Positions 7,579-64,000 of a DNA stretch of 64,000 nucleotides are shown here, piece after piece. Made by a program: the position numbers and the translations under genes. Source of the stretch: Escherichia phage vB_EcoM_SP13. Positions within the stretch are counted from its first letter, which is position 1, and every line of letters starts with the position of its first letter. Under the pieces are notes generated by a model. The model had not been told where the DNA came from. It did not search any database and saw only the letters and a program-made list of their open reading frames with translations. The DNA lies in sequence record OP352608, one strand, 5' to 3'.

Positions 7579-7619
7579 ATTCATCGGCAAAGGATTGCCG
7601 CGAGTTTTATACGTATAAT

Positions 7620-7972: not shown

Positions 7973-8001
7973 ACACAATACTTATTTGAGGGTGGATGCG
8001 A

Positions 8002-9417: not shown

Positions 9418-9419
9418 AC

Positions 9420-10037: not shown

Positions 10038-10051
10038 TAGGCAGGTGAATA

Positions 10052-11191: not shown

Positions 11192-11216
11192 TTGCTGTGA
11201 TTACACAGTAAAACAC

Positions 11217-11246
11217 ATGGGGCGTGGTCGAAAGGCTTCGCCCCAT
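11217..11246 (+). terminator. stem-loop after capsid gene (ATGGGGCG / CGCCCCAT)
   Basis: 8-bp inverted repeat with 14-nt loop just after the capsid stop codon; no clear U-tract. Confidence 0.3.
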
Positions 11247-11306
11247 ATCAATAGACCTCAAGGGCTGTAGGGGCTTATCTGAGGCTTATATAAATAGGAC
11301 TACAAA

Positions 11307-11771: not shown

Positions 11772-11785
11772 ATAAGGTGAATGCC

Positions 11786-12241
11786 ATGTCATTAGATTAC
11801 GAAAAGTTCAGAATTAAATTTCCACAGTTTGCTGATCAGGTTAAATTCCCTGACACAACACTTCAAGTATTCTATGACATGGCATGTGAATTTATTGAAT
11901 CACAAGACAGTCCTTGTCGTGTTTTAAATGGCAGTAAATTGGAGCTGGCATTGGAATATATGACGGCTCATCTTTTATGCATAGCCGCAGACCAACAAGT
12001 GTCTGTGTCTTCTGGTGACGGAGTTGAACAAGGCGGCTTCGTGACTGGCGCAACAATTGGTGACATCACAGTGAACAAAGTCGCGCCGCCTGCGAGTGAT
12101 GGCTGGGAATACTGGCTATCAAGCACTCCATATGGCATGGCGCTGTGGGCGCTTCTTCAAGCACTGGCCGTTGGCGGCTTGTCATTCGGCGGTCTTCCAG
12201 AGCGTGAAGGATTCCGTAAAATTGGTGGGGTATTCTGGTGA
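11786..12241 (+). CDS. hypothetical head-tail joining protein
   Basis: AAGGTGA RBS 5 nt before ATG 11786; synteny only. Confidence 0.4.
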   Translation: MSLDYEKFRIKFPQFADQVKFPDTTLQVFYDMACEFIESQDSPCRVLNGSKLELALEYMTAHLLCIAADQQVSVSSGDGVEQGGFVTGATIGDITVNKVAPPASDGWEYWLSSTPYGMALWALLQALAVGGLSFGGLPEREGFRKIGGVFW

Positions 12242-12624
12242 GGATTCCTGGCGTAAACTTATATCGAGTTGCGACAAAGGTTATCGGTCGCCAACCGATT
12301 CAATATTACATGTACAAGGGGCGCACCCTTGATAAGATGCGCAACTATGTCACTACATATGAAGAACCAATCACCTTACTTGCTTCGGTGCAGGCTGTAC
12401 TTCGAAACCAATACGTTGAGCTTGGTTTAGAGCTTCAAAAGAACTATGTCAAAATCTGGGTGGACAAAGACATTGTTGACCTTGACCGCGACGCTTCCGG
12501 CGACTATTTTGTGTTTGGTGGCAAAACATACAAGATGGAAGATGAAACGACATGGTTTGACCAAGATGGTTGGACGTCTTGCCTTGCCGTGGAAGTAAAA
12601 CAAAGCTTTCCAGTGTCTACTTGA
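12238..12624 (+). CDS. hypothetical head-tail protein
   Basis: GTG start overlapping previous stop; synteny. Confidence 0.35.
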   Translation: MRIPGVNLYRVATKVIGRQPIQYYMYKGRTLDKMRNYVTTYEEPITLLASVQAVLRNQYVELGLELQKNYVKIWVDKDIVDLDRDASGDYFVFGGKTYKMEDETTWFDQDGWTSCLAVEVKQSFPVST

Positions 12625-12631
12625 GGTGTAT

Positions 12632-13207
12632 ATGACAGATGTCGACCTGATTGACATGCTGGCAACGCGAATTGAAGAAGGTCTGGCGGCGTATAGTCGT
12701 GCAGACCTTTCTGCTGTTCCGGTCCAGAAAAAATACCAACCGACTCAACAGGGCATTCCGACTGGTGATCAGATTTGGTTTAACCTTTTATTCTCAGTCC
12801 CATTCGGTTGGTCAATGAGAAAGAATGAATTTGTCAATGATGAATCTCAATTCGTTAATGGCAAATTTAAAGATATTGAAGATCAGATATACGCAACACG
12901 TTTTCAAATTAGCGGCTTATTTCCAGAAGTTCCTGGCAATCCAGAAAAGCCTACGGCTAATGACGTTTTGACTTATTTAGCAAGATTCATAACCCACAAG
13001 GCTAATTTGAGGGATTGGTTTAAAAGGCATCAAGCTTCAGTATATAGAGTCGACATGAACAACAATGAAAAGTTCTATGACGACATGTCTCAGTTTGAAT
13101 CGTTTCCTTCTTTTGATTTGGTAATCCTTCACAGAAACGCAATTTCAATTGACACGCCTGCTGTTGCAAGAGCTGTTAATAACGATTTAGGCGATATTCC
13201 GGTGTGA
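12632..13207 (+). CDS. hypothetical head-tail protein
   Basis: ORF with GAGGTG upstream; synteny. Confidence 0.35.
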   Translation: MTDVDLIDMLATRIEEGLAAYSRADLSAVPVQKKYQPTQQGIPTGDQIWFNLLFSVPFGWSMRKNEFVNDESQFVNGKFKDIEDQIYATRFQISGLFPEVPGNPEKPTANDVLTYLARFITHKANLRDWFKRHQASVYRVDMNNNEKFYDDMSQFESFPSFDLVILHRNAISIDTPAVARAVNNDLGDIPV

Positions 13208-13208
13208 T

Positions 13209-13694
13209 ATGACAAAATCAAAAATGATAGAAAAACAGATAAAGGCGCTTCAATCGATGAAGGGTCTTACTGTTGAAGCAGGATGGTTTGATTCTACCAG
13301 ATACCCTTCAGAAACTGGTGGGGAAGGCATGTTGGTGTCAGAAGTCGCGCGACTGAATGAATTTGGTCACATAGCCGTTTTGAACTTTGGGCAAGGGCCA
13401 GTCAGGGTAGAAGTGCCACCCAGACCATTCATGAGATATGCCTATGAATTATTCGTTAGTGAGCGCAGTGAAATAGAGAATAAAATTGCTAAAAAGATTT
13501 TTTCCGGTAAAATAGACGCTAGACAGGCATTAGGTCAGATTGGGCTTGCGATGGAAGCAAAGATTGTCGAATCAATTAAAAACGGACCTTGGCAAAGAAA
13601 CGCCAGATATACCGTGCGTGTGAAAGGATTCGACAAACCTTTAATTCACAGCAGCCTTATGTGGCAATCTGTCAACAGCCAAGTCATTAAATAA
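13209..13694 (+). CDS. hypothetical tail protein
   Basis: ORF tightly packed before sheath gene. Confidence 0.35.
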   Translation: MTKSKMIEKQIKALQSMKGLTVEAGWFDSTRYPSETGGEGMLVSEVARLNEFGHIAVLNFGQGPVRVEVPPRPFMRYAYELFVSERSEIENKIAKKIFSGKIDARQALGQIGLAMEAKIVESIKNGPWQRNARYTVRVKGFDKPLIHSSLMWQSVNSQVIK

Positions 13695-13706
13695 GAGGAC
13701 ACCGAC

Positions 13707-15245
13707 GTGATCAGTCAATCTCGTTATATTAAAATTGTATCAGGGGTCGGAGCAGGCGCGGCTGTTGCAGTTCGCAAACTGTCGCTTCGCATCATGACTT
13801 CCAATACAGTTCTGCCGCCAGGCATTGTAGCAGAATTTTCAACTGCTGATGCCGTTGGATCATATTTCGGTTTTTCTTCCGAAGAATACAAGCGTGCAGC
13901 ACTGTATTTCGGATTCATCAGCAAGCAAATCAACTCGCCTGATTCAATCAGCTTTTCTCGCGTTGTATCCACGGCGATTCCTGCAATGGTTATCGGCGAC
14001 ACTGAGCCTAAAACGCTTGCTACTTTCCAGGCATTCACTGGCGCTATCTTAAGCATCACTTATGACGGCACAGACTACCTGACTGACGCCATCAACCTTT
14101 CAGCGGCAACAAGTCTTGCCAACGTAGCGGAACTTTTGGAAACGGCAATCAACACCAAGTTTGCAGCAGAAGGTGGCACGTCGGTGCCTGCACTTGCTGA
14201 TGCAGAAGTGTATTGGAATGCCAACACCCAGCAGTTCACTTTGGAAGCCGCTCCGTCGACCGCTGGTGCTGGAAACCTTTCGATTAACGTCACAGGTCAA
14301 CCGACAGACCCATCTCAGGCGCTTGGTTGGACGACTACTGGCACCGTTACGGTTGCTGGACAGGGTGTAGCAAGTCCGGTAGAAGCCATCGCGGCATCTG
14401 TGGAGATTTCCAACAACTTTGGCTCATTCCTTTTCGCTGGAGCAGACCGAACGCTGGAAGAAATCACAGCCGTTGCAGCTTGGACTCACTCGCAGAACAA
14501 CATGTACATGTATCTGTTCTCGACTGCATTCGCCAACATCGGCTCATACTATACCGCGTTGAAAGGTTACTCAGGCGTTGGTATGATGATCCGTGCAACT
14601 AACCTCGCGAATGATTACATCGACCAGGCGCCTGCTGAAATTCTTGCGGCGACAAACTATAACACTGTAAATGCAACTCAAAACTACATGTATTATCAGT
14701 TTGAAACGCGAAATGTAACCGTATCGACTGATTCACGCGCAGATACTGCTGATCAAAACCGTGCAAACTATATCGGTGCGACTCAGCAAGCTGGTCAAAC
14801 TCTCGCGTTCTTCCAGCGTGGTGTTCTGATGGGCGGGTCTACCGCAGCAGTTGACATGAACACTTATGCCAACGAGATGTGGCTTAAATCTGCTATCACT
14901 TCTCAGCTGTTCAGCATGTTCTTGAATCTTGGTCGCGTGCCTGCAAACGAAGAAGGCAAAGCGACTGTCCAAGCCATGATTCAAGTTGCTGTTGACAATG
15001 CGAAGGTTAACGGCACCATCTCTGTCGGTAAGGCGCTGACGGAAATTCAGAAACAGTACATCACGCAAACCTCCGGTGACAACACTGCTTGGCGGCAGGT
15101 TGAGACTATCGGTTATTGGTTGACTGTCGATTTTGACACTGAAACCACTTCCGATAACCGCACCGAATACTATGCAACATACACGCTAATCTACTCTAAA
15201 GATGATGCTGTGCGTCGCGTTGAAGGTCGTGACGTTCTTATTTAA
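13707..15245 (+). CDS. tail sheath protein (putative)
   Basis: 512-aa protein immediately upstream of tube gene; size and position typical of contractile sheath; GTG start. Confidence 0.55.
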   Translation: MISQSRYIKIVSGVGAGAAVAVRKLSLRIMTSNTVLPPGIVAEFSTADAVGSYFGFSSEEYKRAALYFGFISKQINSPDSISFSRVVSTAIPAMVIGDTEPKTLATFQAFTGAILSITYDGTDYLTDAINLSAATSLANVAELLETAINTKFAAEGGTSVPALADAEVYWNANTQQFTLEAAPSTAGAGNLSINVTGQPTDPSQALGWTTTGTVTVAGQGVASPVEAIAASVEISNNFGSFLFAGADRTLEEITAVAAWTHSQNNMYMYLFSTAFANIGSYYTALKGYSGVGMMIRATNLANDYIDQAPAEILAATNYNTVNATQNYMYYQFETRNVTVSTDSRADTADQNRANYIGATQQAGQTLAFFQRGVLMGGSTAAVDMNTYANEMWLKSAITSQLFSMFLNLGRVPANEEGKATVQAMIQVAVDNAKVNGTISVGKALTEIQKQYITQTSGDNTAWRQVETIGYWLTVDFDTETTSDNRTEYYATYTLIYSKDDAVRRVEGRDVLI

Positions 15246-15292
15246 ATAATTGCCGCCGTAAATGGCGGCCATCTCTCTGAGAGGAATCTGTA

Positions 15293-15760
15293 ATGATTAA
15301 CGTTTCCGGTTTTGGCGCTTCGATTCGTTTGGTAGCATCAAACACTTTTCCGAATGGTGTGACTCTTTCTGATTTTGCAGATGATGCTGATCCGATTGAC
15401 GCGCCGGACCTGCAAATCTCTGAGGCTGCAATGGGCCTTAACGGTGACTTAGTAGTATGGAACCGTGCAAACCCGCTTGAAGTAGGTGTGAACATCATCC
15501 CTACTTCTGAAAGTGATGTCAACTTGGACGTTCTTGCAGCTGCAAACCGCGTAGGCAAGCGTAAGAACTCTGCAAAAGACGTGATCACACTTGTGCTGAC
15601 TTATCCTTCTGGAATGGTTATCACGCTAAACAAAGGCACCTTGACAACTGGTTCAGTAATTCCTGGCATCCAGTCTCAAGGTCGTGTGAAAACACGTCAA
15701 TATCGCTTCAAGTTTGAGAACGTAGTCAAAACTGGCGTGAGCAACCAAGAGATTTTATAA
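15293..15760 (+). CDS. tail tube protein (putative)
   Basis: 155 aa directly after sheath; GAGAGGAA RBS; paralog of 16711-17208. Confidence 0.5.
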   Translation: MINVSGFGASIRLVASNTFPNGVTLSDFADDADPIDAPDLQISEAAMGLNGDLVVWNRANPLEVGVNIIPTSESDVNLDVLAAANRVGKRKNSAKDVITLVLTYPSGMVITLNKGTLTTGSVIPGIQSQGRVKTRQYRFKFENVVKTGVSNQEIL

Positions 15761-16089
15761 TGTATCAAATACCACTTGACAGCGTACCTAACCAGAATAT
15801 CAGCTTTAACGTTGACGGTGCATATTGGCAGTTGCACATTTTTGCCGCTATCGAGCACATGTGCGCCGACGTATACCGCAACGGTGAACTTTTGATTCAA
15901 GGGGTGCGCTGTTTTGGTGGTATCCCAATGGTGCCTTATAAGTATCTCATGATTGGGTACGGTAATTTCATTTTCGACAGCGTACCTGATTATGAAAGTT
16001 TTAACTCTGGCGGCTGTAATCTATATTACATGTCAGAATCTGAGTTGGCTGAATTCCAGGCAACTGCTGAAGCGGAGTTTGCAATTTGA
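15760..16089 (+). CDS. hypothetical tail protein
   Basis: ATG overlaps previous stop (TAATG). Confidence 0.35.
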   Translation: MYQIPLDSVPNQNISFNVDGAYWQLHIFAAIEHMCADVYRNGELLIQGVRCFGGIPMVPYKYLMIGYGNFIFDSVPDYESFNSGGCNLYYMSESELAEFQATAEAEFAI

Positions 16090-16442
16090 CAACTCTAACA
16101 ATTGAAGTTAACGAAAATAATGACCTTTTTCTGCCTGATGGAAGAAACTTAAATATTCTTTCAGGAGAAAAAGCGATGGTGCAAGTAATCAAGGCCGCGC
16201 ACCAGATGCGACTTGGTGAAGACTTGTACGATATAGAAAACGGTGTCGATTATTTGGGGACCGTTTTCAAGTCGCCCGTTGACGAAGACGGTGCGCGAAA
16301 GTCGATTGCAGATGCTATTCTGAAGAAAGCAGACGTTGCCGGAATCGACTCGTTGACTGTCACCATCCAAAACGGTATCCTTGGATTCACTGCAGAAGTG
16401 GTGACTATTTATGGCGAACGTATAAAGGTGAGTAATCAATAA
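16086..16442 (+). CDS. hypothetical tail protein
   Basis: TTG start in track; alternative ATG at 16176 with AGGAG RBS. Confidence 0.35.
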   Translation: MTTLTIEVNENNDLFLPDGRNLNILSGEKAMVQVIKAAHQMRLGEDLYDIENGVDYLGTVFKSPVDEDGARKSIADAILKKADVAGIDSLTVTIQNGILGFTAEVVTIYGERIKVSNQ

Positions 16443-16708
16443 TGGCACAAGTAATTCATTTTGCAAATGGCGTCATGAAATTTGGCGAAAAATTTGAAGA
16501 CGCATCAGAGCTGTTTAATAAGAAGGTTGATCCTGTTGCAGAAATCAAAGAGCAGGTCGAAGAAAAATCCGTTGAACAAAAACTAGATTTTGATTCCATG
16601 AGCGTTTCAGAATTGAAGTCTTATGCTAAAGAAAATGGCATTGACATCAAGGGTCTTTCTTATAAGGATGAAATTCTTGCTGCAGTTAAATCTGCATCTG
16701 CGGAGTAA
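16442..16708 (+). CDS. small protein with HeH/SAP-like motif
   Basis: SVSELKSYAKENGIDIKGLSYKDEILAAV resembles a helix-extension-helix DNA/RNA-binding motif. Confidence 0.35.
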   Translation: MAQVIHFANGVMKFGEKFEDASELFNKKVDPVAEIKEQVEEKSVEQKLDFDSMSVSELKSYAKENGIDIKGLSYKDEILAAVKSASAE

Positions 16709-16710
16709 AC

Positions 16711-17208
16711 ATGGTCAATATTAGTGGATTTGGCACAAGCATTAGAATTGTCGCTCTTCAATCTTTTCCTGTTGGGCTGAATATCAGTTCTTTGTCTGAT
16801 GACCAGGATTCGCTAATCATTGAGGAAGTTGAATCAGTAGGTTATCAACTTACTTACGACGGCGGCATTTGCATATACGACAAAGCCGCCGTCGTTCGCG
16901 TATCCATTGCGGTCATTCCAAACACTGAAGACGACATAAATCTTAAGCTTTTATTATCTGCCCGTAAAGGTGGATTCAAGTGGTTGCCAATTCAGGATGT
17001 GACATCGATGCTCATTACATATCCTGACGGTGGAAGGGTGGCATTCTCTAACGGAACGATAATCAGCGGTCCGCTTGGTGACTCCATAGAGCAATCAGGC
17101 CGTCGCAAGACAAACCGATACACATTTGTGTTTGCCAGCTACGGTGGCGCACAGAGCACGTCTCAAATTGCCAAGGGCGTGGTGCAGAGCATATTGGGGT
17201 CCATTTAA
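16711..17208 (+). CDS. tail tube protein paralog
   Basis: Clear similarity to 15293-15760 product (MINVSGFGASIRLVA vs MVNISGFGTSIRIVA; ITYPxG; RxKTxRY). Confidence 0.5.
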   Translation: MVNISGFGTSIRIVALQSFPVGLNISSLSDDQDSLIIEEVESVGYQLTYDGGICIYDKAAVVRVSIAVIPNTEDDINLKLLLSARKGGFKWLPIQDVTSMLITYPDGGRVAFSNGTIISGPLGDSIEQSGRRKTNRYTFVFASYGGAQSTSQIAKGVVQSILGSI

Positions 17209-17741
17209 TGGCTATCGATTTACTGTCATATAGTCTATCAAACAGAAGCTTCACGATAAAGAGCTTCAACCTTGGAGAAGTATCCACGCTTGGATGGGCC
17301 ATAGTCAACGTCAAAATAAGACTCCAAGCAAAGATATTCAAAAACCAAAGGGAAGACGGCAGCTATATTGTCGATGGCAGAGTAAAGATGCCGCGAATAC
17401 TCACTGTCACCGTGATAGCTCAGACGAAAAGCGCATCAGATGCAATAGCTAAGATGTTGCAAAACAGGTCGACTATATACACAATTAATTCCCGTGGTCT
17501 AATATTCGAACGTATGGTGCTGCAAAATAACAACTTCAGCCAGGACGCTGACAATATAACGTCTCAGCCCATACAATTGGTCTTCCATGAGATATTAACA
17601 CAGCAGGATGTGTCTATTCAAACAGCGCAGGCAGGCGACTCAACAGTAATAGAGCGCGGCATTGCATACATAAAAGAAACTTCTGCCAGCGTCACCGGCG
17701 TCGCTACAAAGGTGATGAATGGTATCAAGGGGATGTTCTGA
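17208..17741 (+). CDS. hypothetical tail protein
   Basis: ORF overlapping previous stop. Confidence 0.35.
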   Translation: MAIDLLSYSLSNRSFTIKSFNLGEVSTLGWAIVNVKIRLQAKIFKNQREDGSYIVDGRVKMPRILTVTVIAQTKSASDAIAKMLQNRSTIYTINSRGLIFERMVLQNNNFSQDADNITSQPIQLVFHEILTQQDVSIQTAQAGDSTVIERGIAYIKETSASVTGVATKVMNGIKGMF

Positions 17742-18301
17742 TGGACTTCGTTTCGATTCTGCTTTCTGGTCAATCTTTGACCATAACGAATGAGTCAACA
17801 GGTCTTCCTGTCTGGACAAGGCTTTCACCTGTTTCTGCAGAAATAACATCCCCAGCAGAAACAACTCAATTCCCTCTTGCTGGCACAGCCATGCAGGTTG
17901 TCGAAGTATCAAGCACGTCATCAGTAAGCAATTTACAGGCAGCAAAGGTTGTAATGCCAGCCCATATGGCGTTAAACGTAATTTGCAATGACCAGTCTAC
18001 AATTGAAAATATCATAAATTCATTTGATGATGACGAAGTCACATTTTCAATAACTTCTCGAAGCATCATTGCCAGTAAAATGTCGATGTCCGACGTTGAA
18101 ATAACCCAGTCAGAAGAAAACTTGAATGGAGTCTCAATAGTAATAACTTTCGAGCAAACGTCATTTAGCATTCAAGGAAGCTTCGACCCTAAACAATCTG
18201 CAGACGAATCATCAAATGGTGTTGCTATTAAAGAACCAGTCAGTTTGACTACAACTGTGAGTTCGTTATATAATAAAATAAAATCAACAGTAGGAATATA
18301 A
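17741..18301 (+). CDS. hypothetical tail protein
   Basis: ORF overlapping previous stop. Confidence 0.35.
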   Translation: MDFVSILLSGQSLTITNESTGLPVWTRLSPVSAEITSPAETTQFPLAGTAMQVVEVSSTSSVSNLQAAKVVMPAHMALNVICNDQSTIENIINSFDDDEVTFSITSRSIIASKMSMSDVEITQSEENLNGVSIVITFEQTSFSIQGSFDPKQSADESSNGVAIKEPVSLTTTVSSLYNKIKSTVGI

Positions 18302-18302
18302 A

Positions 18303-18719
18303 ATGAAGATCACCAACAAACAAACTGGTCGTACAGTAGAAATTAAAATCAGCAAAATGACTGCGATGGAAGGCTGGAATATTCAGCGTCGCTTTGTCGA
18401 ATTTGCAATGTCGAAAGACCCTGCGTTTCGTTCAGAGTATACGATGGAAGTGTTGAGCTTCGCAAAAGTCGAGCTTGATGTGGGTCAAGAAATCCCATTA
18501 AGCACTGGTGCACTAATTGACAACCATCTTGGTGACTGGGAAAACCTTAAAGAAGTCTTCGAAGCAGTCCTCATGGAGAACGGTATAAACCCAGATACTC
18601 ACGCCGAGCGTGAAGGCTACTGGGAACAAGCTGGCGGCGAAATGGCTGCAGCATTCATCGGCGAATCGATGCGATTAATCGCGCCATTCCTCAGCGGCGA
18701 GACTCCAAACAAGGGGTAA
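18303..18719 (+). CDS. tail assembly chaperone (putative)
   Basis: 138-aa acidic protein immediately upstream of tape measure gene. Confidence 0.4.
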   Translation: MKITNKQTGRTVEIKISKMTAMEGWNIQRRFVEFAMSKDPAFRSEYTMEVLSFAKVELDVGQEIPLSTGALIDNHLGDWENLKEVFEAVLMENGINPDTHAEREGYWEQAGGEMAAAFIGESMRLIAPFLSGETPNKG

Positions 18720-18722
18720 ACT

Positions 18723-20903
18723 GTGTCTGACTCATTAGAAAAATTTGTGCTTCAATATACGGTGGACTTGAAAGAGTCCATCAATCGTCTTGAGCAATTG
18801 CAAGATAAAGTTGATCAGACAAACAAAAAGGCGAAATCCGCTGGAAAAGATTTCTCTGGAGCATTCAAAGATGTTTTTGGCGAGCTAAAGCCGCTCACTG
18901 GTGAGCTAGGGTCAATCGACGGAATACTTGCGCGGCTGACATATCGTTTTGCCGCGCTTGTTCCTGTGGTAGCAGGATTGGCTGTCGTTGTCAAATCCAT
19001 CGTTGATGTTCGAAAAGAATACGAAGCGCAAAGAAAGCTTGGTTTTGAAGCCGGACTCTCTCCAATGGGTGTCGAACAACTACAACGACAGTTGAATGAA
19101 AGTTCAGGTGGCATCCTTGGCGCACAGGGGTCGCGCGATTTAATCAGCAAAGCTTCTAATTTGGCATTCAATGCATACACCAACCCTGATGTGATGAACA
19201 AGGACAACTTGTTGCTGAACAAGATGGGGACAAGTCCTTTCAATAGTAACGGCGGCATCAAAGACACGAATCAGCTGCTTGATGAAATTGGAACAAAGCT
19301 GAGAAGTGTTAATGAGCAAACCGCTCGTGCCATTGGTGCTCTGGCAGGATTCACGGCTGATGAAGTCCGCGCCCTTCGTGAGCGCAACCAGTCTGTGAAA
19401 GAAAGCACGCGCATAAGTGACGAAGAAACCGCGAAGCTGCAAAGACAGCAAGCTGCTCTTGAGACTATACGAAATAGTATGGGGCAAATTCAAGAAGATT
19501 GGCGGCGTATTGAACTGGTCATCGGTGAAAACGTTATGCCTGCATTCTCGACGCTTGTCAGCAAAACCGCCGATACAGTCGAAGGATTCCAGATGATGTT
19601 CCAAAGAATGTCCGATGGGTGGTCTGAATTCGTCGACAATTTCATCGCTGACTTGAAACATCCGTTCGACAAGCAGGCCGCTGTCAACGAGCGTCACGAG
19701 CGTGCCGTTGATAGATGGATCACGCAGATGGCAGACGGCGATGTGAAACGCCAGAGGAACCAGGAGCAAAACGCTGCTGAACAACGCTCTGCACAGGCTC
19801 TTTTTACTCGCGATATCAACCTGTTTTCAAGTGCCGTTTCAACCTTTGCTGGCGTGATTGATGAGCGTCAAGCTTGGGCGGCATGGGCAGGTGAAATCGG
19901 GCGCAGCGCAGGGCAATCCGCGATGCCTGGAACACCAGCATTGAATACTGGCGCGACCGTAGGGAATAATCTTGGGTCAGGGAATCCGACAGCATACGAC
20001 TCAATATATGAGGAAGCTTCAAAACGCTATGGTATACCTGTTGCGATGATGAAGGCCGTAACAGAAGTCGAATCTGGATTCAACCCCAATGCCGTAAGCG
20101 GAGCAGGTGCGACCGGACTGATGCAAATCATGCCTTCCAACTTCAAGGGTCTTGGTATCACAGACGGCAACGACCCTAGACAAAACATTATGGGCGGCGC
20201 TCAACTGTTGAAAGAGTATTTAAACGCTGCCAACGGCGATTGGAATCTTGCGCTGACGATGTATCACGGTGGCTACGACCGCAGCGGCTGGGGCAAGAAT
20301 ACACGCGCTTATCCTGGAAAGGTCATGGCAGCTCTCGACCGACAATCCAATGGTGAGTATGCCACGGCAGCGCCGCAAGGTGCACCAGTTACTCCAGTAC
20401 TTAGCGGTAGCGGAGCGGAAGCACCAAAGGGCCGTTATGCACCAGTACAAGGTCAATCGCGCCAAACGGTGCAATACAGGCAATTGCAAGAAGCCATTGC
20501 AGGATACCTGAACGTACCAGTTGAGCAGTTGATGCAGGGACAAGTCAACAAAGGTGATATTGACTTTGCTCAAACTTACCTTAAGCTTGGAACGCAAAGG
20601 GATTATATTAAAAACATGCAACTGGCTTCAACTCCAGGTGTAAGACCGAACATTCAAGCCGAAGCGATGAAAAACGCTCGTCTTGCTGCATTCCAACTTG
20701 AAGCATTCCAGAAATACGGCGGCGACCTTTCCGCGAATAGTCGACCTGGTGGGCGTGATATTACTATGGGTCAGAAAAACGTTGTCATCAACGTCAACGG
20801 CGCTCAAGACCCACGCAGCACGGCATTCGAAACGAAACGAGTGCTTGAACAAGATGATATCAACGACATAAACAACCTTACTGCTACACCTTTGAAGTGG
20901 TGA
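18723..20903 (+). CDS. tail tape measure protein with lytic transglycosylase (SLT) domain
   Basis: 726 aa, coiled-coil N-terminal half; C-terminal SLT motif EVESGFNPNAVSGAGATGLMQIMP; GTG start. Confidence 0.7.
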   Translation: MSDSLEKFVLQYTVDLKESINRLEQLQDKVDQTNKKAKSAGKDFSGAFKDVFGELKPLTGELGSIDGILARLTYRFAALVPVVAGLAVVVKSIVDVRKEYEAQRKLGFEAGLSPMGVEQLQRQLNESSGGILGAQGSRDLISKASNLAFNAYTNPDVMNKDNLLLNKMGTSPFNSNGGIKDTNQLLDEIGTKLRSVNEQTARAIGALAGFTADEVRALRERNQSVKESTRISDEETAKLQRQQAALETIRNSMGQIQEDWRRIELVIGENVMPAFSTLVSKTADTVEGFQMMFQRMSDGWSEFVDNFIADLKHPFDKQAAVNERHERAVDRWITQMADGDVKRQRNQEQNAAEQRSAQALFTRDINLFSSAVSTFAGVIDERQAWAAWAGEIGRSAGQSAMPGTPALNTGATVGNNLGSGNPTAYDSIYEEASKRYGIPVAMMKAVTEVESGFNPNAVSGAGATGLMQIMPSNFKGLGITDGNDPRQNIMGGAQLLKEYLNAANGDWNLALTMYHGGYDRSGWGKNTRAYPGKVMAALDRQSNGEYATAAPQGAPVTPVLSGSGAEAPKGRYAPVQGQSRQTVQYRQLQEAIAGYLNVPVEQLMQGQVNKGDIDFAQTYLKLGTQRDYIKNMQLASTPGVRPNIQAEAMKNARLAAFQLEAFQKYGGDLSANSRPGGRDITMGQKNVVINVNGAQDPRSTAFETKRVLEQDDINDINNLTATPLKW

Positions 20904-30346: not shown

Positions 30347-30423
30347 TATAATTCACCTTTTGATTACGAATATTAATAGTATAGGCCGAAGGTTTTGAAA
30401 GTAAATAAGGCGAAAGGTAAATA

Positions 30424-30448
30424 AAAGAAAAGCCGGAGATTTCCGGCT
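30424..30448. terminator. rho-independent terminator (AGCCGGA / TCCGGCT)
   Basis: 7-bp stem, 4-nt loop, flanked by A-run and T-run. Confidence 0.55.
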
Positions 30449-30522
30449 TTATGTATACACTGTATATTAAATTCTATAAAACGACGAGATAGATTATCCG
30501 CACCAATTATTTATCTAGTGTC

Positions 30523-31500
30523 TTAGAAATACTCCATATCGGTAATATCACGGAAGCATTTATACAAAGCAGAGCGCGGCACGTCAACGATGCCAAAGTT
30601 AAAGAATTTATACGTAAGGTATTTATCGCGATAGTTTTCGCGATTCTCCCAAAGCATTTTACGCTCTGCCATAGGCATTGAACCAGCGGAGACGCGGAAA
30701 GGAATCATTTCACCTTTCTCATCCACATATTTTGGATTGACGACTACGAATGAGCCAAGGTATCCTTTCGCAACTAAACCTTCAGCCTCTTTTGAACGCT
30801 TGGTGCGACCCAATTCGTCAATGAATGCTTCGTTGTTGTTCTCCATCATCTCAACGAAGTCTATGATCAATCCTTCTTCATCGGTCCACGGCTTGTCCTT
30901 CCACACATCACGTGACTTCGGCGTCGCGCGGCCATGCTTGTATTTGCCCGTCCAAGACTTGCCATACAAGCCTTCATATCCAAGCTGGTCCGCTTCGATT
31001 TGCATCGCCGCGTACTGTTCCATATTTTCGATGTTTCGATATTCGAGAGCGCGAAGGAATGGGCGTCGACCATGGTTGATGAGATGTTGATTAACTTCAG
31101 CAACTCTAGCTCGATAGTTCGCATAACGCTTTTCAAAAGGCAAATCAGGGTCGCTGAAGTCATCAAACACCCACCATGTAAAGTTAGTGATTGCATCAGT
31201 ATTCATGCACGCAGTATAGGCCTGTTGCATGACGTTCTTGTCATTTGGATTGCCGTCGATTAGCTCTCCATCAAGTCCGTGAATTAGTTCACCCAAAAAG
31301 AGGAATTCTTTTTTGATTTGAACGTTTCTCAGCGCCATGCCGGACGTGCCCATTGGCAAGTTGTCATACGCCATTGCGCGTATTCCATCGACCTTGAATG
31401 ACAATCCGCAAGGCAGCGGCACGTCTTCGCCGCGCTCGATTATTTGCTTACGCTGGCAACCCTTCATTGGTTTTAATGCTTTGATTTCTCCTGCCATCAC
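30523..31500 (-). CDS. ATP-dependent DNA ligase
   Basis: Adenylation motif I FKVDGIR near N-terminus; 325 aa consistent with minimal phage ligases; AAGGAG RBS. Confidence 0.6.
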   Translation of the reverse strand: MMAGEIKALKPMKGCQRKQIIERGEDVPLPCGLSFKVDGIRAMAYDNLPMGTSGMALRNVQIKKEFLFLGELIHGLDGELIDGNPNDKNVMQQAYTACMNTDAITNFTWWVFDDFSDPDLPFEKRYANYRARVAEVNQHLINHGRRPFLRALEYRNIENMEQYAAMQIEADQLGYEGLYGKSWTGKYKHGRATPKSRDVWKDKPWTDEEGLIIDFVEMMENNNEAFIDELGRTKRSKEAEGLVAKGYLGSFVVVNPKYVDEKGEMIPFRVSAGSMPMAERKMLWENRENYRDKYLTYKFFNFGIVDVPRSALYKCFRDITDMEYF

Positions 31501-59076: not shown

Positions 59077-59609
59077 TGGGTAACGATGCAGGATGGGGCA
59101 AGCCGCGATACTCAAAACTTGCCCACTACTTTGACGACGGCGAGCAAATCAGCTTGTGCGGTAAATTCAACAAAGGCAATACAGAGTTGACCGATGCTCA
59201 AGAAATGGAATCAAGTCTGACAATTGGTGATTGCTCTAAGTGCAGAAAGGCATTATATGAGTTATTGACTCTAAGGGGATTGAAAGCGGCAAAATCAAGG
59301 GATGAATGGGTCATCAACGTCTGTGAAGGGAATCCAGAATTGATGGATGAATTGCTGAAAACAGATGCCGTTAATGCCATTTTCAAAAGGCATTATAAAA
59401 CTTGTATGCGTTACAAGATGAATGATGATATTATTTTTATGGTATTATCTTATTCAAGGAGCACAATGGACGTCAAAAAGCTTCGACAATATCGCCACAA
59501 GGTCATGTGTGAATTGCGCCGTTTAGGAGTTATTGTGGATAATAATGTCATTAAAACGGAGTTAAAGAAGCGTGATAAAAGGAATGGTGACTGGAAGGTC
59601 AGCGGATAA
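59073..59609 (+). CDS. hypothetical Cys-rich protein
   Basis: 178-aa ORF with several Cys pairs (CGKF, CSKCRK). Confidence 0.4.
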   Translation: MMGNDAGWGKPRYSKLAHYFDDGEQISLCGKFNKGNTELTDAQEMESSLTIGDCSKCRKALYELLTLRGLKAAKSRDEWVINVCEGNPELMDELLKTDAVNAIFKRHYKTCMRYKMNDDIIFMVLSYSRSTMDVKKLRQYRHKVMCELRRLGVIVDNNVIKTELKKRDKRNGDWKVSG

Positions 59610-59612
59610 ATA

Positions 59613-59637
59613 AACACTGTTTACGTGTTTTGAAGAA
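59613..59637 (+). terminator. stem-loop after last early gene (AAACAC / GTGTTT)
   Basis: 6-bp inverted repeat followed by TT. Confidence 0.3.
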
Positions 59638-59869
59638 TGGAATGTGTGCAATGGGTCGCTTTATGCGGCCTTTTGTCGTTTGGGTCATGTTTTGCTATGG
59701 AATAATTATGAGGTTGTGTTTTATTTATTAATTGTGCGGAAATATTTAGAAATATATATAAACAGGATTGTTAATATTTTAATAGTTTATGGCTATTGGT
59801 CCGTGGTGTTTGTTAGATTCTATCTATGGATTGGATTTTCTTGGGTCGTGAAACGTGGTTTTGAACACA

Positions 59870-60240
59870 TTTGATACGCCTAAAATACGGTTAAAAATTA
59901 AGCGTATCATGGCTGCAGGCCGCGCCGTTCCTGGATTCCTCTTTTCCAAATTGGTACACCCTTACGTCATGATACGTCATGGTTTTTTATCCGTATCAGT
60001 GTACAACCCTTGCCGCGCCTGGCTTGTACATTAATCTTACGGATGATACGGATAAAACTGAGCATCGTTATATATAGAATTCGAAAAATTAATTAACTCC
60101 AATTTTAAAAACATTTATATTAATTTTTTTCATATCCTCATACTTATGTTAATTTATATATTTAACGTATCATCCGTAAGATATAAGTAAAAACAAAGAC
60201 TTGCGGCAATACGGATGATACGTCATGATACGCTTCAACC
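59870..60240. repeat. palindromic 9-bp repeat element B (homolog of element A)
   Basis: Units at 59965-59980, 59990-59998, 60038-60054 (inverted), 60167-60179, 60211-60234; AT-rich core 60065-60165 resembles 7700-7785. Confidence 0.8.
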
Positions 60241-60461
60241 AGCCAGCAGCGGCTAAGTCGTTGATTTGCATAACAAGCGGCAAAAGGGATGGATTTCTTT
60301 TATACGTATCAAACAGTACACCACGCACCACGGTCCGTTATCCATTCAGCAATATGATTTGTGTACGTTTATAGCCATAATGAACATCAATCTGCACTTG
60401 AATATAATGTCCATCCATTGTATAATTCACACTATTAATTTGCACTATGGGATTTTGCACT

Positions 60462-60935
60462 ATGAGTCAAGATTATGTAGCGATGCCTGAAGACTTTGAA
60501 GACCCGCGATTCGCAGAGCACAATCAGGCTTTATTCGATGAGTTCATTGACCTTGTTATTCAGGGTCATGACATGCGCGCAGCTTTTGCACTAGTATTTG
60601 GAATGGAAGTTGCAACGGATAACTACACTGGCCAGCGAATCCTTTGCACGCAACGCAATCCATACTACAAGATGCGCTTCAAAAAGCGTATGGAAGAGAT
60701 GCCACTCAAGGATTTGTGGAGCGTAAAAGGTGCAATTCACAATTTGGTTAAGCTTGTTCGTGATCCAGAAGTCGCGGCGTCAGCCAAGCTTAATGCTATT
60801 CGTGAACTGAATATCATCTACGGCATCACGATGATTGATGAAAACGGCAATAGTAAAATGGGCCGTTCCATGGACGATTTCTACAAGGATTTTGGAGAGG
60901 CGGCCAAAGAAGGTGAGCAATTCTCCCGCCACTAG
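60462..60935 (+). CDS. terminase small subunit-like protein (tentative)
   Basis: 157 aa; C-terminal AKLNAIRELNIIYG region resembles small-terminase/DNA-binding folds; motif copies overlap its start codon; far from terL in this window. Confidence 0.3.
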   Translation: MSQDYVAMPEDFEDPRFAEHNQALFDEFIDLVIQGHDMRAAFALVFGMEVATDNYTGQRILCTQRNPYYKMRFKKRMEEMPLKDLWSVKGAIHNLVKLVRDPEVAASAKLNAIRELNIIYGITMIDENGNSKMGRSMDDFYKDFGEAAKEGEQFSRH

Positions 60936-60954
60936 CCAATTTGCACTATAAAAC

Positions 60955-60988
60955 GGCCCTAGAACACATTTTCTCCAATTCTAGGGCC
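60955..60988 (+). terminator. stem-loop (GGCCCTAGAA / TTCTAGGGCC)
   Basis: 10-bp perfect inverted repeat with 14-nt loop just after the 60935 stop; no U-tract. Confidence 0.35.
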
Positions 60989-61049
60989 ATCGGTAATACG
61001 ACGGGGAAGGTTACAAACATAAACGCGTTAGAAAGTGTATTATTATAAG

Positions 61050-61313
61050 TCATCTTTTAGTCACCTTACGTAACAATTTACGACCTTCAACCGTCCAATC
61101 GAACGACTCCACCAGCAGATTCGCACTATAACCTAAGACGATGCGTCCCTTCTCGTTATCGACCCGCCAACAAGTCTCGAATAGCATTCGATTTGCACTA
61201 TTAACTATTGCCGCAACTCGCGTAGGATAAGCGCAATTTGAACTATGGTCGTAAAGGGATAAGGTGCGACCACTTCCGATGGACAACGTAGCGATGAGAA
61301 TGAGCGTATTCAT
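61050..61313 (-). CDS. hypothetical protein
   Basis: 87-aa ORF; motif copies fall inside it. Confidence 0.3.
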   Translation of the reverse strand: MNTLILIATLSIGSGRTLSLYDHSSNCAYPTRVAAIVNSANRMLFETCWRVDNEKGRIVLGYSANLLVESFDWTVEGRKLLRKVTKR

Positions 61314-61363
61314 AAGCCACCAATTTGCACTATGAAAAGCGACCCCGAAGGGCCGCCATTCGA

Positions 61364-61990
61364 TTAGATAATCTGGAAGGTATAGGATTTGTTGCCGAAC
61401 TCAAAGTTCAAGCGCCCAGCTTCCTTAAGCTTCATGCGGAAGCGAATGTGCTTGCTATCCGGCAAGCCCAGCACGGCGAACGCTACGCGGACCGATTTGA
61501 ACTCGCCTACACCCTCGACCATAACGCCGTTACGGGTGAGACGCTTTTGCGCCACTTCCTTATTATCCCAACTTTTTGCAATACCTTCGCTATTCGAACG
61601 GCGATGGGAAGGAGTTCCATTTTGCACTACGCAATTTGCACTATCGTTTAGACCGCTCTTAACGAAGGCTTCATACTCTTCGTCGGTCATCGCGTCGAGT
61701 TCTTCCTGGGTCGGCTCGGCCTTTTTAACGACCGCACGCGCCTTATGCGTTTTTACATCGCTGGACACTTCCTCGCGCGACTTCGCTTCGGGGATGGGCG
61801 ATTCGTTGGACGGCTCATCGAGCGCGTTTAAGGACTCGATTAACGCGATTACGCGAGTCTCGGCGGTACGGCGGTCCGCAAATTTCTTAATCGGCTTCGA
61901 ACCGGAATTTGCATTATAAAATGCAACGAGGTCGGCGGTCTTAGTTGCGATAACGTCGCCGCTAGTCGAGAAACGATTTAAGCTAACCAT
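61364..61990 (-). CDS. hypothetical protein
   Basis: 208-aa ORF spanning the visible composition change. Confidence 0.4.
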   Translation of the reverse strand: MVSLNRFSTSGDVIATKTADLVAFYNANSGSKPIKKFADRRTAETRVIALIESLNALDEPSNESPIPEAKSREEVSSDVKTHKARAVVKKAEPTQEELDAMTDEEYEAFVKSGLNDSANCVVQNGTPSHRRSNSEGIAKSWDNKEVAQKRLTRNGVMVEGVGEFKSVRVAFAVLGLPDSKHIRFRMKLKEAGRLNFEFGNKSYTFQII

Positions 61991-62070
61991 AATGAACTCC
62001 TATTTGTTAGGGCGCTAGGCGCGAAAGAATTTTATTAAAGCGCCGCGCACGACGCTCTAAAAATCCTCTC

Positions 62071-62355
62071 TTACGCTTCGACGAGGGAGAAGGTCTCAAA
62101 TTCTTCTTCGCCCATAACGAGTAAGATGTTACCGATTTCGACCGCTTCGAAGAAGTATCCGTTAACGTTTACTTCGAAGGCTTCGCGGTCCGATTCCGGT
62201 AACGCCGCGTAAAGTTTAAAAGCCTCGGCGACCGTTACCCCACCCGCCTCGATGGTCTGGTCTACGTTCGCGGCGTAGACTTCGGATAAAATTTGTTTTA
62301 CGCCGTAGTTCTCGACGATAGCGTTACGGATGGAAGAAACGTTAAGAATAGCCAT
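62071..62355 (-). CDS. small acidic protein, paralog family member
   Basis: Similar to 62990-63280 product (MAILNVSSIRNAIVEN vs MITLSAIRAARVETSEN; VNVNGYFFEAVEIG vs VTINGFVYTITEIG); preceded on minus strand by conserved promoter-hairpin-RBS cassette. Confidence 0.5.
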   Translation of the reverse strand: MAILNVSSIRNAIVENYGVKQILSEVYAANVDQTIEAGGVTVAEAFKLYAALPESDREAFEVNVNGYFFEAVEIGNILLVMGEEEFETFSLVEA

Positions 62356-62423
62356 TTTAAACTCCTAGTTGGGAGAGGCGTTAACGACCTATTCGCTAAC
62401 TCATCCCGTCCCGATATGAGTAC

Positions 62424-62451
62424 ATTATAATATAGTGTAGAAAAAAGTAAA
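62424..62451 (-). promoter_or_regulatory. promoter TTTACT-N16-TATAAT (minus-strand copy of cassette)
   Basis: Minus -35 at 62446-62451 and -10 at 62424-62429; same cassette as 62894-62922. Confidence 0.5.
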
Positions 62452-62495
62452 GCACTTTTTCGATAAAAATGCGATAAATTATTTTATCTTTTTTC

Positions 62496-62523
62496 TTTAC
62501 TTCTTCGTACACTCGCGTATACT
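62496..62523 (+). promoter_or_regulatory. promoter TTTACT-N16-TATACT (cassette copy)
   Basis: -35 at 62496-62501, -10 at 62518-62523; followed by GGGAG RBS and ATG 62580. Confidence 0.5.
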
Positions 62524-62579
62524 TGTTTATATCGAGACGGGCGATGGCCCTTCCTTCTACTAGCATCGGGAGCTTTATT

Positions 62580-62882
62580 ATGACTACTTTAATCTCTTCC
62601 ATCCTTACTTACGACGAAGACCGTTTAACCGTTCGCTCTCTTATCGCCGCCGTTAACGCCGAACTAGAATCTAGCGCCATTAAGGTCCGCGCGGTTGCCT
62701 TCGTCGGTCTTTCCTTCGACGATATCAAGTACGCCGAACGTAGCGCCATCCGCTTCGCGAAGACCGACGACGAAGCCGTTACCCTTATCGAGACGGTTAC
62801 TCCGCGCGGCGAAACGTTAATTATCGTCGAGTATATCGACGTAGAAGGCGATAAGGCTTATAAATATTTTATCGCAAAATAA
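62580..62882 (+). CDS. hypothetical small protein
   Basis: GGGAG RBS 7 nt before ATG 62580. Confidence 0.45.
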   Translation: MTTLISSILTYDEDRLTVRSLIAAVNAELESSAIKVRAVAFVGLSFDDIKYAERSAIRFAKTDDEAVTLIETVTPRGETLIIVEYIDVEGDKAYKYFIAK

Positions 62883-62893
62883 CGAAAAAGTGC

Positions 62894-62922
62894 TTTACTT
62901 CTTAGTACACTAAGACTATAAT
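62894..62922 (+). promoter_or_regulatory. promoter TTTACT-N17-TATAAT followed by 5' UTR hairpin
   Basis: -35 at 62894-62899, -10 at 62917-62922; hairpin GGTAGCGA / TCGCTACC at 62945-62965; AGGAG RBS; ATG 62990. Confidence 0.55.
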
Positions 62923-62989
62923 GTTTTATATCGAGAGGGGATGAGGTAGCGAATAGGTCGCTACCCTCCCGACTAACTAGGAGAATATT

Positions 62990-63280
62990 ATGATCACTTT
63001 ATCCGCTATCCGTGCCGCTCGCGTCGAAACTTCCGAAAACTCTAACGTATTTGGCGAAACCTTAGAGAGCGTTTATCTCTCTAACGTTGACGCGATTATC
63101 GAGTCTATTTATGAGCCGATCAACTTCCTCGACCTTTACAAGTATCGCGATGAGGACATCGTGTCCTACCGCGTAACGATTAACGGCTTCGTTTATACGA
63201 TTACCGAAATCGGCGGCGAATATCTCGCTGTACCGCAACTCGGCGGCGAAGTAACTTACTTTAAAATCGTAAGCCTTTAA
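62990..63280 (+). CDS. small protein, paralog family member
   Basis: Paralog of 62071-62355 product; strong promoter and RBS. Confidence 0.5.
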   Translation: MITLSAIRAARVETSENSNVFGETLESVYLSNVDAIIESIYEPINFLDLYKYRDEDIVSYRVTINGFVYTITEIGGEYLAVPQLGGEVTYFKIVSL

Positions 63281-63291
63281 GGAGAAGAAAA

Positions 63292-63501
63292 ATGATTAAT
63301 ATGAATAACTCTCTTAACGCGCGCGCCCATCGCACCGCCGTCATCGATATGTTCCGTGAGCTTAAGGACTTATGCGATAATATGAACGCGATGTTATCCA
63401 TCGGCGGCTGGGGATACGAAGAAGAAGTTAAATATGCGGTTATGCGTCGCCGTCGCGATAACGTCCTTGGGCAAATTAAACGCGCCGGATTATTCCTTTA
63501 A
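63292..63501 (+). CDS. hypothetical small protein
   Basis: AAGGAGAAG RBS before ATG. Confidence 0.45.
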   Translation: MINMNNSLNARAHRTAVIDMFRELKDLCDNMNAMLSIGGWGYEEEVKYAVMRRRRDNVLGQIKRAGLFL

Positions 63502-63669
63502 TTATAATCAACCACCGTTACTAATAGGCCGCGCTTAGTCGCGGCTTTTCTTCGTCCCTATCTCGGTGCGCTCCTACGCGAAAACTCCTTTATCCTTCCC
63601 TTCGTCGTCGCATAATCTTCGTCGATATGCGCCTTAGTTCGCATAACAGGTATTACGTTAAATGGAGAA

Positions 63670-63940
63670 CATCGCGTAAGTCCTTGTTTTATATAGACAC
63701 CTATATCGGACCGTTAGGGCGGGTCGCGTAAGTCGTTGTTTTATAAAGGCGCAAAACTTTCCCTTCGTTCCGAACTAAAACGAGGAATATGCCGACCCTT
63801 CGTCCGAAAATAGTACGCATGCGAAATTACATGCATCTAGAATAATCCCCACAGATATTATCCTACACGCAATCATTCGCTTTCGAATCATTATGCTTCA
63901 TATTATTATGCGTCGAATCATTCGCTTTCGAATTGTAACG
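63670..63940. repeat. direct repeats in 3' non-coding region
   Basis: CGCGTAAGTC(C/G)TTGTTTTATA twice (about 63673 and 63725); AATCATTCGCTTTCGAAT twice (about 63870 and 63917). Confidence 0.6.
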
Positions 63941-64000
63941 CTGGAAACTGTAACGGCGATTGATTATTGCGTTCGTGTGGTTTTTATGGCATGGGTCTTT

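Follow-up and report, generated by a model that had tools for sequence, protein, structure and literature searches.

Why does the last part of this phage DNA look so different from the rest? The DNA analysed here, referred to as the window, is a 64,000-nucleotide stretch of Escherichia phage vB_EcoM_SP13 (record OP352608), and the segment in question begins at about position 61650 and runs towards its right end. An initial annotation, made from the letters alone, considered this segment rich in CG dinucleotides and in CGC/TCG/TTA codons, noticed small genes behind a repeated promoter-hairpin-ribosome-binding-site cassette, and took it as a separately acquired or separately regulated gene family, possibly with early host-takeover or anti-defence functions, near a genome end. 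Here, we report that the signature of the segment is a purge of CpA/TpG and that its visible CG and TA richness is the mirror image of this purge.

A CpA/TpG purge at the right end of the window

Dinucleotide use was evaluated as strand-symmetrised odds ratios (observed/expected, o/e), with z-scores against 289 same-size chunks. In 61650-63950, CpA/TpG falls to 0.40 from 1.18 in the first 60 kb (z = -13.8), CpG rises to 2.06 from 1.09 (z = 12.1) and TpA to 1.20 from 0.66 (z = 8.0); 113 CA/TG are observed and 285 expected. The remaining seven dinucleotide classes are essentially constant between block and rest, G+C content does not shift between the segment and the rest of the window, and the total of pyrimidine-purine steps is nearly unchanged (0.246 versus 0.253). 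The segment has a dinucleotide-signature distance of 0.231, whereas other chunks average 0.047 and reach at most 0.128, i.e., the segment is more distinct than had been described by eye; the CG richness seen there is real, but the CA/TG loss that constitutes the signature had gone unnamed.

Among the trinucleotides, CAG/CTG, CAA/TTG and TCA/TGA are the most depleted, together with GCA/TGC, and the enriched ones (CTA/TAG, TAA/TTA and CGA/TCG) are exactly the single-transition derivatives of the depleted set. All eight CA/TG-containing trinucleotide classes are down 2- to 8-fold, and this holds in four lineages (described below). The CA/TG that survive are concentrated in AAAGTG, TAATGT and ATG contexts, that is, in promoters and start codons.

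The purge has a shoulder from about 60950, reaches full effect at about 61650, inside the open reading frame (ORF) 61364-61990, and ends at about 63810, some 190 bp before the window end. The start that had been guessed at 61650 thus stands as the start of the full effect. In the core of the block (61650-63810, no strand) CpA/TpG o/e is about 0.2-0.5, CpG about 2 and TpA about 1.2. Just beyond the position of the window end, the composition of phage F13 looks normal again, and the profile of phage WFC is the same.

The purge acts on DNA

CA and TG are both low on the sense strand of genes in either orientation. The depletion is found in all codon phases, i.e., positions 1-2, positions 2-3 and the junction 3-1, where CA/TG o/e is 0.32/0.42 in the block versus 1.17/1.27 in long reference ORFs, and the non-coding DNA of 63502-63950 is likewise depleted. 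Because both strands, all codon phases and non-coding DNA are affected, the purge acts on DNA. An explanation through codon usage or at the RNA level, for instance by translational selection or by evasion of an mRNA endonuclease, would agree with the very skewed codon use of the block, in which CTG, TTG, TCA, ACA and CCA never occur and Gln, His, Cys and Trp have about one quarter of their frequency in reference ORFs; we rejected it on the sense-strand, junction and non-coding depletion just described, and the removed codons CTG and CAG are favoured ones in E. coli, which leaves it extremely unlikely. The rare E. coli codons AGA, AGG, CGA, CGG and ATA are absent from the block genes, as expected of highly expressed genes under an extra rule of no CA/TG. 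As to the codons named by the initial annotation, CGC (0.62 versus 0.40 of Arg codons) and TTA (0.39 versus 0.10 of Leu codons) are enriched as noted, but the excess of TCG is marginal (0.15 versus 0.11).

The purged block lies in the direct terminal repeat

The window belongs to a Wifcevirus myophage. Its part 61350-64000 is 100% identical to Escherichia phage F13 (OP745617) and 80-97% identical to 30 further records, nearly all of Escherichia/Shigella phages, with three Pantoea phages; the remainder of the window matches the same genus. In phage Mansfield, a direct terminal repeat (DTR) was predicted by PhageTerm at 1-3673, and the record of phage WFC was deposited with both repeat copies (DTR, 1-3784). 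By BLAST, base 1 of both records corresponds to position 60102 of the window and Mansfield 3673 to position 64000. The DTR accordingly spans 60102-64000 (about 3.9 kb, no strand), with 60102 as the physical left end of the genome, and the proposed location near a genome end is borne out.

From left to right, the repeat consists of an AT-rich leader, a small-terminase-like gene, an array of the 9-mer TTTGCACTA, and the segment under study, which continues to the right repeat boundary and makes up the right three-quarters, the presumed early-gene part. In the right-hand repeat copy the purged block abuts the physical genome end. The small-terminase-like gene (60447-60935, plus strand; phrog_4783, E = 1.9e-75), whose Mansfield orthologue is a terminase small subunit by HHpred, has an ordinary dinucleotide composition (CA 1.30, TG 1.19).

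Related genera and signs of selection within Wifcevirus

We fetched the homologous loci of relatives and profiled their composition. The purged block is present in all 31 matching records and in related genera: a similar block of about 2 kb, in which CA/TG o/e drops to minima of 0.10-0.21 and CG is about 2, is found in Pantoea phage PA1 (Kylevirus), in a Serratia Myosmarvirus-like contig and in the IMG/VR contig 2974626280. It was not seen in Pbunavirus (Pseudomonas) and other high-GC relatives examined. Contig 2974626280 contains both repeat copies; judged from coordinates, its DTR measures 3603 bp, of which the last 100 bp or so lie beyond the block. Gene content of the purged blocks differs between lineages; the Serratia block carries a second paralogue of the 208-amino acid (aa) protein described below and other small acidic ORFs. 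Please note that the two Serratia paralogues (L018, 8001-8633 and 11902-12408) are one outside and one inside the block, and the inner one is gene 001 of Serratia phage MyoSmar.

Could the segment simply be a horizontally acquired island that kept the composition of a foreign donor? Its composition is strongly atypical, its gene content varies between Wifcevirus isolates, and one of its genes, orf69 (63292-63501, plus strand; 69 aa; phrog_10377, 'transcriptional regulator'), occurs in only some Wifcevirus genomes and is matched by homologues (40-46% identity) in over 300 records of Klebsiella phages (Webervirus). However, the purge grades into a core gene, the 208-aa ORF at the left edge (61364-61990, minus strand), which has homologues in 355 phage records including Pbunavirus and is fully purged only in its 5' half (61651-61990). 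The block is moreover shared by all Wifcevirus genomes examined and three other diverged lineages, and the one Webervirus homologue of orf69 that was examined, in phage Sin4, sits in DNA with CA/TG of about 1.1, so composition follows location and not ancestry. We found neither an integrase or transposase in the block nor the patchy distribution, mobility genes and donor-like composition of a genomic island. With the active maintenance shown by polymorphism (below), separate acquisition, as the initial annotation had offered it, is very unlikely.

The polymorphism evidence comes from an alignment of 11 Wifcevirus genomes, in which transitions were divided into singleton and shared ones. CA/TG-creating transitions in the block comprise 39 singletons versus 19 shared (58 events). 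This differs from neutral transitions in the same block (40:51 singleton:shared; Fisher p = 0.007) and from CA/TG-creating transitions outside it (58:115; p = 1e-5), and the neutral classes show no difference between block and control (p = 0.46). The pattern points to purifying selection against new CA/TG, acting on the DNA itself rather than reflecting a foreign origin.

A local mutational process in the terminal repeat, for example RIP-like deamination of C to T at CpA or aberrant glycosylase repair that turns TpG/CpA into CpG, would act during resection, annealing or repeat duplication, and the singleton excess could also come from fast reversion. Fungal repeat-induced point mutation (RIP) causes CpA/TpG depletion and TpA gain in duplicated DNA, which is a likeness to the purge, and our region is a repeat whose replacements are single-transition derivatives of CA/TG with the pyrimidine-purine total nearly kept. 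RIP, however, lowers G+C and does not double CpG, whereas here G+C is constant, CpG is doubled, the left quarter of the same repeat is spared and polymorphism indicates selection. To raise CpG and TpA together at constant G+C, two opposite transition types would be needed. A repair bias from TpG/CpA to CpG by thymine-DNA glycosylases has been described (PMC4041421). Yet the leftover CA/TG sites are not hypermutable (0.11 versus 0.093 transitions per site), new CA/TG do arise but stay rare, and the retained ones are located in promoters and start codons. We consider a mutational origin distinctly unlikely.

As a negative control we used 120 mostly unrelated viral loci from an IMG/VR scan for the 14-nt promoter core, most of whose matches are chance ones. 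The median of their lowest 1-kb CA/TG o/e is 0.95, and values of 0.5 or below occur only in known relatives and in one unrelated AT-rich contig. The latter (L134, 1-2000) has CA/TG o/e of 0.33-0.54, CG of 1.47 and TA of 1.33 over 2 kb, and its CA/TG-poor stretch covers a P-loop helicase-like gene; CA/TG-poor islands may thus exist in other phage groups too.

Restriction sites in the repeat and published phenotypes

We compared the restriction sites of the repeat with published phenotypes of Wifcevirus phages. Phage Bas99 is reported to be restricted only by EcoP1_I, though EcoCFT_II has similar site numbers (PMC11990801); in the raw data of that study, Bas99 gave zero plaques on EcoP1I versus 4.4e9 plaque-forming units on the vector control. 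The recognition sequences used here were checked on the full Bas99 genome, where our counts equal the published S2-table exactly. Genome-wide, Bas99 has 5 EcoKI, 3 GAG(N7)GTCA, 38 EcoRI, 8 EcoRV, 92 CACAG and 89 AGACC sites (CACAG is one of only five 5-mers with exactly 92 occurrences). Its DTR, by comparison, holds no EcoRI or EcoRV site, no EcoAI-like (EcoCFT_I) site and no CACAG (EcoCFT_II), one EcoKI site and six AGACC sites (EcoP1I); those of the purged block are in both orientations. Bas98 and Bas100 show a site pattern like that of Bas99.

Thus Bas99 is resistant where sites drop from 92 (CACAG) or 38 (EcoRI) in the genome to none in the DTR and sensitive where six of the 89 AGACC sites are in it, and the sole system that restricts these phages is the sole one with several sites in the repeat. 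A related observation was made in Autographiviridae, where motifs in the first-injected region decide sensitivity to type I restriction (PMC12455610). In such cases of leading-region motif avoidance (the logic of T7 Ocr; Murciavirus, PMC12455610), sensitivity tracks the motif in the early region and not the genome count, as it does here; those cases, however, lose single motifs, whereas here a whole dinucleotide is lost over 2-3 kb, which alters codon and amino-acid usage. The site pattern suggests an exposure of the repeat that precedes the onset of a broad protective function, for which the block is the probable source. The purge may be behind the resistance of these phages to most restriction enzymes tested but not to EcoP1I.

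Generic restriction avoidance through a smaller repertoire of short motifs was considered and found insufficient. The repertoire shrinks only slightly, and palindromes centred on CG or TA, such as TCGA, are raised in the block, so the purge is not a generic restriction-avoidance device. Palindrome avoidance in general is equal in block and background (0.73 versus 0.74). GATC is avoided more in the block than in the genome (0.17 versus 0.44), and the genome-wide avoidance of CTAG (0.19) is relaxed there to 0.77.

A tentative explanation and its competitors

We favour, tentatively and at somewhat less than an even chance, the explanation that the block is an early host-takeover/anti-defence module in early-exposed DTR DNA, from which CA/TG targets have been removed by selection. 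Host RNA polymerase would transcribe the block genes immediately after DNA entry, and the small acidic proteins and a two-domain DNA-binding-like protein would bring the host under phage control and/or disarm defences by which the remaining genome would be cut. The repeat would be the DNA exposed before these protective products exist and would have to survive by its sequence alone; it is for this reason, we propose, that selection removed the targets of one or more DNA-directed agents with short CA/TG-containing recognition sequences. The most concrete candidate agents would be enterobacterial type III enzymes (e.g., those with CAGCAG or CACAG) and other restriction enzymes. Sites without CA/TG, e.g., AGACC of EcoP1I, would persist in the repeat as weak points of the phage. 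Published restriction phenotypes agree with the initial guess that early host-takeover or anti-defence functions are encoded here. The more far-reaching proposition, that selection purges a whole dinucleotide from first-exposed DNA as a passive, sequence-encoded form of defence evasion or self-immunity not described before, is possible but doubtful.

Several points weigh against this explanation. The restriction correlation rests mainly on a single informative contrast, CACAG versus AGACC, and the F13 block does have one EcoRV and one EcoKI site. Composition is normal in the left part of the repeat (60102-60950), terminase gene included, though this DNA would be exposed equally early; none of the candidate explanations accounts for this normal left quarter. 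Transition products make up nearly all of the replacement, the pyrimidine-purine total being kept, and a mutational process could yield the same. The motif repertoire of the block is only slightly below background (5-mers present, 85% versus 93%; bipartite 3+4 motifs, 21% versus 23%); generic avoidance is thus too small an effect, and an agent that is biased to CA/TG, reading it directly or through many short CA/TG-containing sites, would be needed. Finally, the block proteins have no homology to Ocr, Ard or other PADLOC/Pfam families, i.e., no known anti-defence family is represented.

A comparison with the pre-early region of T5 (Tequintavirus) is helpful here. Both are early gene sets, presumably so in Wifcevirus, in a long DTR, with host-type promoters in both directions and beside repeats, and the Wifcevirus block is indeed inside its direct terminal repeat. 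Both also differ in dinucleotide signature from the rest of the genome: the T5 repeat (1-10219) has CG of 1.34 versus 0.74 and GC of 1.58 versus 1.09 in 10220-20000, AG and GA are about 0.78 versus about 1.05, and the change occurs at the repeat boundary. The T5 signature is however unlike ours, with CG and GC up, AG and GA down and CA/TG not depleted; its repeat is 10.2 kb versus 3.9 kb long, and there is no detectable homology to T5 genes. Homologues of A1, A2 and dmp were not found among the block proteins by Pfam, PHROG-function, NCBIfam and PDB searches, in which T5 proteins were not aligned one by one with those of the block. The T5 injection stop signal and the TTTGCACTA array are comparable by position only.

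This comparison bears on a second possibility, namely self-immunity to an early nuclease or nickase of the phage itself, with a 2-3-nt CA/TG-containing specificity, that degrades host DNA in a T5-type two-step entry; the block would lack sites and survive, and the rest of the genome would enter, or become protected, later. Chlorella-virus frequent cutters are a precedent for nucleases of short specificity. Depletion at the level of a dinucleotide, in every trinucleotide class and in four lineages, is what a very short recognition sequence would give, the position in the DTR beside a repeat array resembles T5 first-step-transfer DNA with its injection stop signal, and the T5 DTR too has a dinucleotide signature of its own. 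We regard self-immunity of this kind as unlikely: none of the block proteins yielded a nuclease domain, the 208-aa one resembles a DNA binder that has no catalytic domain, and the rest of the genome is normal in CA/TG and has no known protection.

A constraint from transcription or replication was also weighed. Spurious promoter elements (-35 TTG/TTGA, extended -10 TG) might have been removed, or the block might be a desert of primase starts, so that long 3' tails persist through which terminal repeats anneal into concatemers. E. coli DnaG primase uses CTG, and CAG/CTG, CAA/TTG and TCA/TGA lead the depletion. The -35 element of the cassettes, TTTACT, is TTGACA minus exactly TG and CA, and in the repeat copy on the right the block is next to the physical end of the genome. 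But every CA/TG class is depleted and not CTG or TTG alone; promoter avoidance leaves the depletion on both strands of post-terminator non-coding DNA unexplained; and the Pseudomonas relatives examined share the replication and packaging genes yet do not have the block. Both the promoter version and the primase-desert version seem rather improbable to us, on a par with a mutational origin.

Returning to an early takeover/anti-defence module purged of CA/TG targets, a second resemblance is to the host-takeover module of Bacillus phage SPO1, a cluster of small genes in a terminal redundancy, as here. Each SPO1 gene or short operon is equipped with a strong promoter of host type and a strong ribosome-binding site of its own, and our three cassettes provide the small terminal-repeat genes with just such elements. 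SPO1 differs in its host, in its promoters, in the lack of homology and in a repeat without compositional shift. By these analogies, the gene module would be of the T5 pre-early/SPO1 host-takeover kind.

A literature search retrieved no description of such a dinucleotide island in phages; a dinucleotide purge by selection, and its agreement with restriction phenotypes, thus seem novel. Interest in Wifcevirus phages is both therapeutic and biotechnological, and the 3-kb terminal-repeat module is a place to look for protection from restriction, with a simple rule on offer: the restriction sites within the repeat would decide sensitivity. The removal of one dinucleotide on both strands over 2-3 kb is an unusually clean footprint of a DNA-level agent, whose identity could reveal a new defence or takeover activity. 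If the more far-reaching proposition is true, a widespread CA/TG-directed DNA-targeting activity, present in Enterobacterales or encoded by the phage itself, has escaped recognition, and the puzzling EcoP1I-only sensitivity of Wifcevirus would be explained. Similar islands may mark the leading regions of other phages and could then serve as a sequence-only marker of their first-exposed DNA.

Promoter cassettes and stem-loop

The three cassettes align, one of them inverted, around a sigma-70-type promoter, AAAGTGCTTTACTT, 16-17 nt and TATAATGT, and all three have a Shine-Dalgarno sequence (AGGAG/GGAG) ahead of ATG. Copies 1 and 3 share in order AAAGTGC, the -35 TTTACT, a 16-17 nt spacer with TACACT, the -10 TATAAT, TATATCGAGA, a stem-loop, AGGAG and ATG, and are 77-88% alike. 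Cassette 1 (62353-62465, minus strand) has its -35 at 62451-62446 and its -10 at 62429-62424, with the stem-loop in the 5' untranslated region; cassette 3 (62880-62992, plus strand) has them at 62894-62899 and 62917-62922, 17 nt apart. Cassette 2 (62480-62582, plus strand; TTTACT at 62496-62501, 16 nt, TATACT at 62518-62523) is degenerate and retains only the CTTTACTT...TACACT...TATA.T...TATATCGAGA core, without AAAGTGC and without the conserved hairpin. As matched to the sigma-70 consensus, the promoters agree in 10/12 positions at 16-17 nt spacing and are conserved across genera. The small genes, arranged in short operons, thus stand behind near-consensus sigma-70-type promoters and strong ribosome-binding sites with a hairpin, and separate regulation, the other half of the first proposal, holds up.

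Every Wifcevirus genome examined keeps the promoter AAAGTGCTTTACTT-TATAATGT, as do PA1 and contig 2974626280, and in each of them one copy precedes the homologue of the 208-aa protein. In the Wifcevirus phages without the 94-aa ORF (Ro157lw, vB_Eco4M-7 and ECML-117), cassette 1 is directly before the gene of the 208-aa protein. A promoter core (GTGCTTTACT) is also seen in Pseudomonas Pbunavirus genomes (L007, i.e., Ab27; L053; L112), where the purged block is absent, and this suggests that the early-promoter type may be conserved across hosts.

The stem-loop core of cassette 3 is formed by GGTAGCGA (62945-62952) and TCGCTACC (62958-62965), with a fold of -21.3 kcal/mol (z = -2.7). Across copies and isolates we found one G-C to U-A double change and, at another pair, a series of G-C, G.U and A-U; one isolate has a disruptive change. 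Because of these compensatory and wobble changes, the sequences are better reconciled with a 5' stem-loop of the RNA, which is probably a stabiliser, than with a DNA operator. Rfam 15 gave no covariance-model match at E<=1 in 59500-64000. In the GenBank record of F13 (9450-9752; L002, 7650-7952) there is a 303-bp tandem duplication, absent from the window, that would fall between 62981 and 62982 and comprises the 3' part of the 100-aa ORF and cassette 3; either the cassette is truly duplicated or the assembly is at fault.

Genes of the block

The 208-aa protein is a conserved, presumably early protein, probably DNA-binding, and looks like a two-domain DNA-binding-like protein. To its left, an 87-aa ORF (61050-61313, minus strand) that is annotated in relatives lies in the shoulder of the purge (CA 0.70, TG 0.89, CG 1.70). 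To its right are three acidic ORFans of 94 aa (62071-62355, minus strand), 100 aa (62580-62882, plus strand) and 96 aa (orf96; 62990-63280, plus strand), the 100-aa ORF showing the strongest purge (CA 0.24, TG 0.12, CG 2.37). The 94- and 96-aa proteins, taken initially as clear paralogs, are real but distant paralogues (28% identity, pairwise E = 1e-5), and the 100-aa ORF behind cassette 2 has no detectable relation to this pair. Their family is tiny and restricted to these phages. A word-indexed search of 5.8 billion proteins with orf96 returned homologues in Wifcevirus only, and two more small relatives came from a full HMMER profile search over 1.84 billion representatives, in which the orf96 family amounts to four small clusters; matches to bacterial Ig-like (Big_13) repeat proteins in the same search were judged spurious. 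The AlphaFold2 model of orf96 is of low confidence (pLDDT 52.6). The small block proteins have no match in Pfam, PHROG functions, NCBIfam, PADLOC and PDB sequence searches. An intrinsic-terminator-like hairpin (63526-63547, plus strand) ends the rightward operon.

Other features of the repeat and the window

The TTTGCACTA array (60439-61916, plus strand) consists of eight exact copies (60439-61643) and four one-mismatch copies, all in a single orientation. They lie only in the left portion of the DTR, and the remainder of the 64 kb lacks an exact copy. The span of the array overlaps with the small-terminase gene and with ORFs of both strands. The 9-mer array occurs at the matching relative place in PA1 (seven copies) and contig 2974626280, as seen in the fetched loci (L005, 8648-9310, and L015). 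Terminase/packaging sites or binding sites of the adjacent DNA-binding-like protein are candidate roles.

In the same two relatives, six copies of Chi (GCTGGTGG) in one orientation are clustered adjoining the array (L005, 8321-9812; L015, 5481-9744), and this orientation suits recognition by RecBCD that enters at the left end of the genome. A single Chi copy, CCACCAGC at 61109 (61109-61116), is present in the window, fused to a TTCGCACTA motif.

Away from the repeat, no tRNA gene was found in the window. A small AT-rich islet (30351-30700; CA/TG 0.52, CG 2.04) is located at a switch of gene orientation and contains a promoter-like site, TTTACT-16 nt-TATACT, on the minus strand (30405-30378) and a bidirectional terminator-like hairpin at about 30432-30452.

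The non-coding right end of the DTR (63548-64000, no strand) has CG of 2.04, with CA/TG of 0.5-0.65 up to about 63810. It carries two pairs of direct repeats, 63672-63696/63724-63748 (25 nt, 92%) and 63855-63897/63900-63942 (43 nt, 74%), which may be repeat-end cutting signals or binding sites. Around the left end at 60102 (59977-60228), perfect or near-perfect inverted repeats are seen, e.g., 60165-60178 with 60210-60223 and 59985-59998 with 60044-60057.

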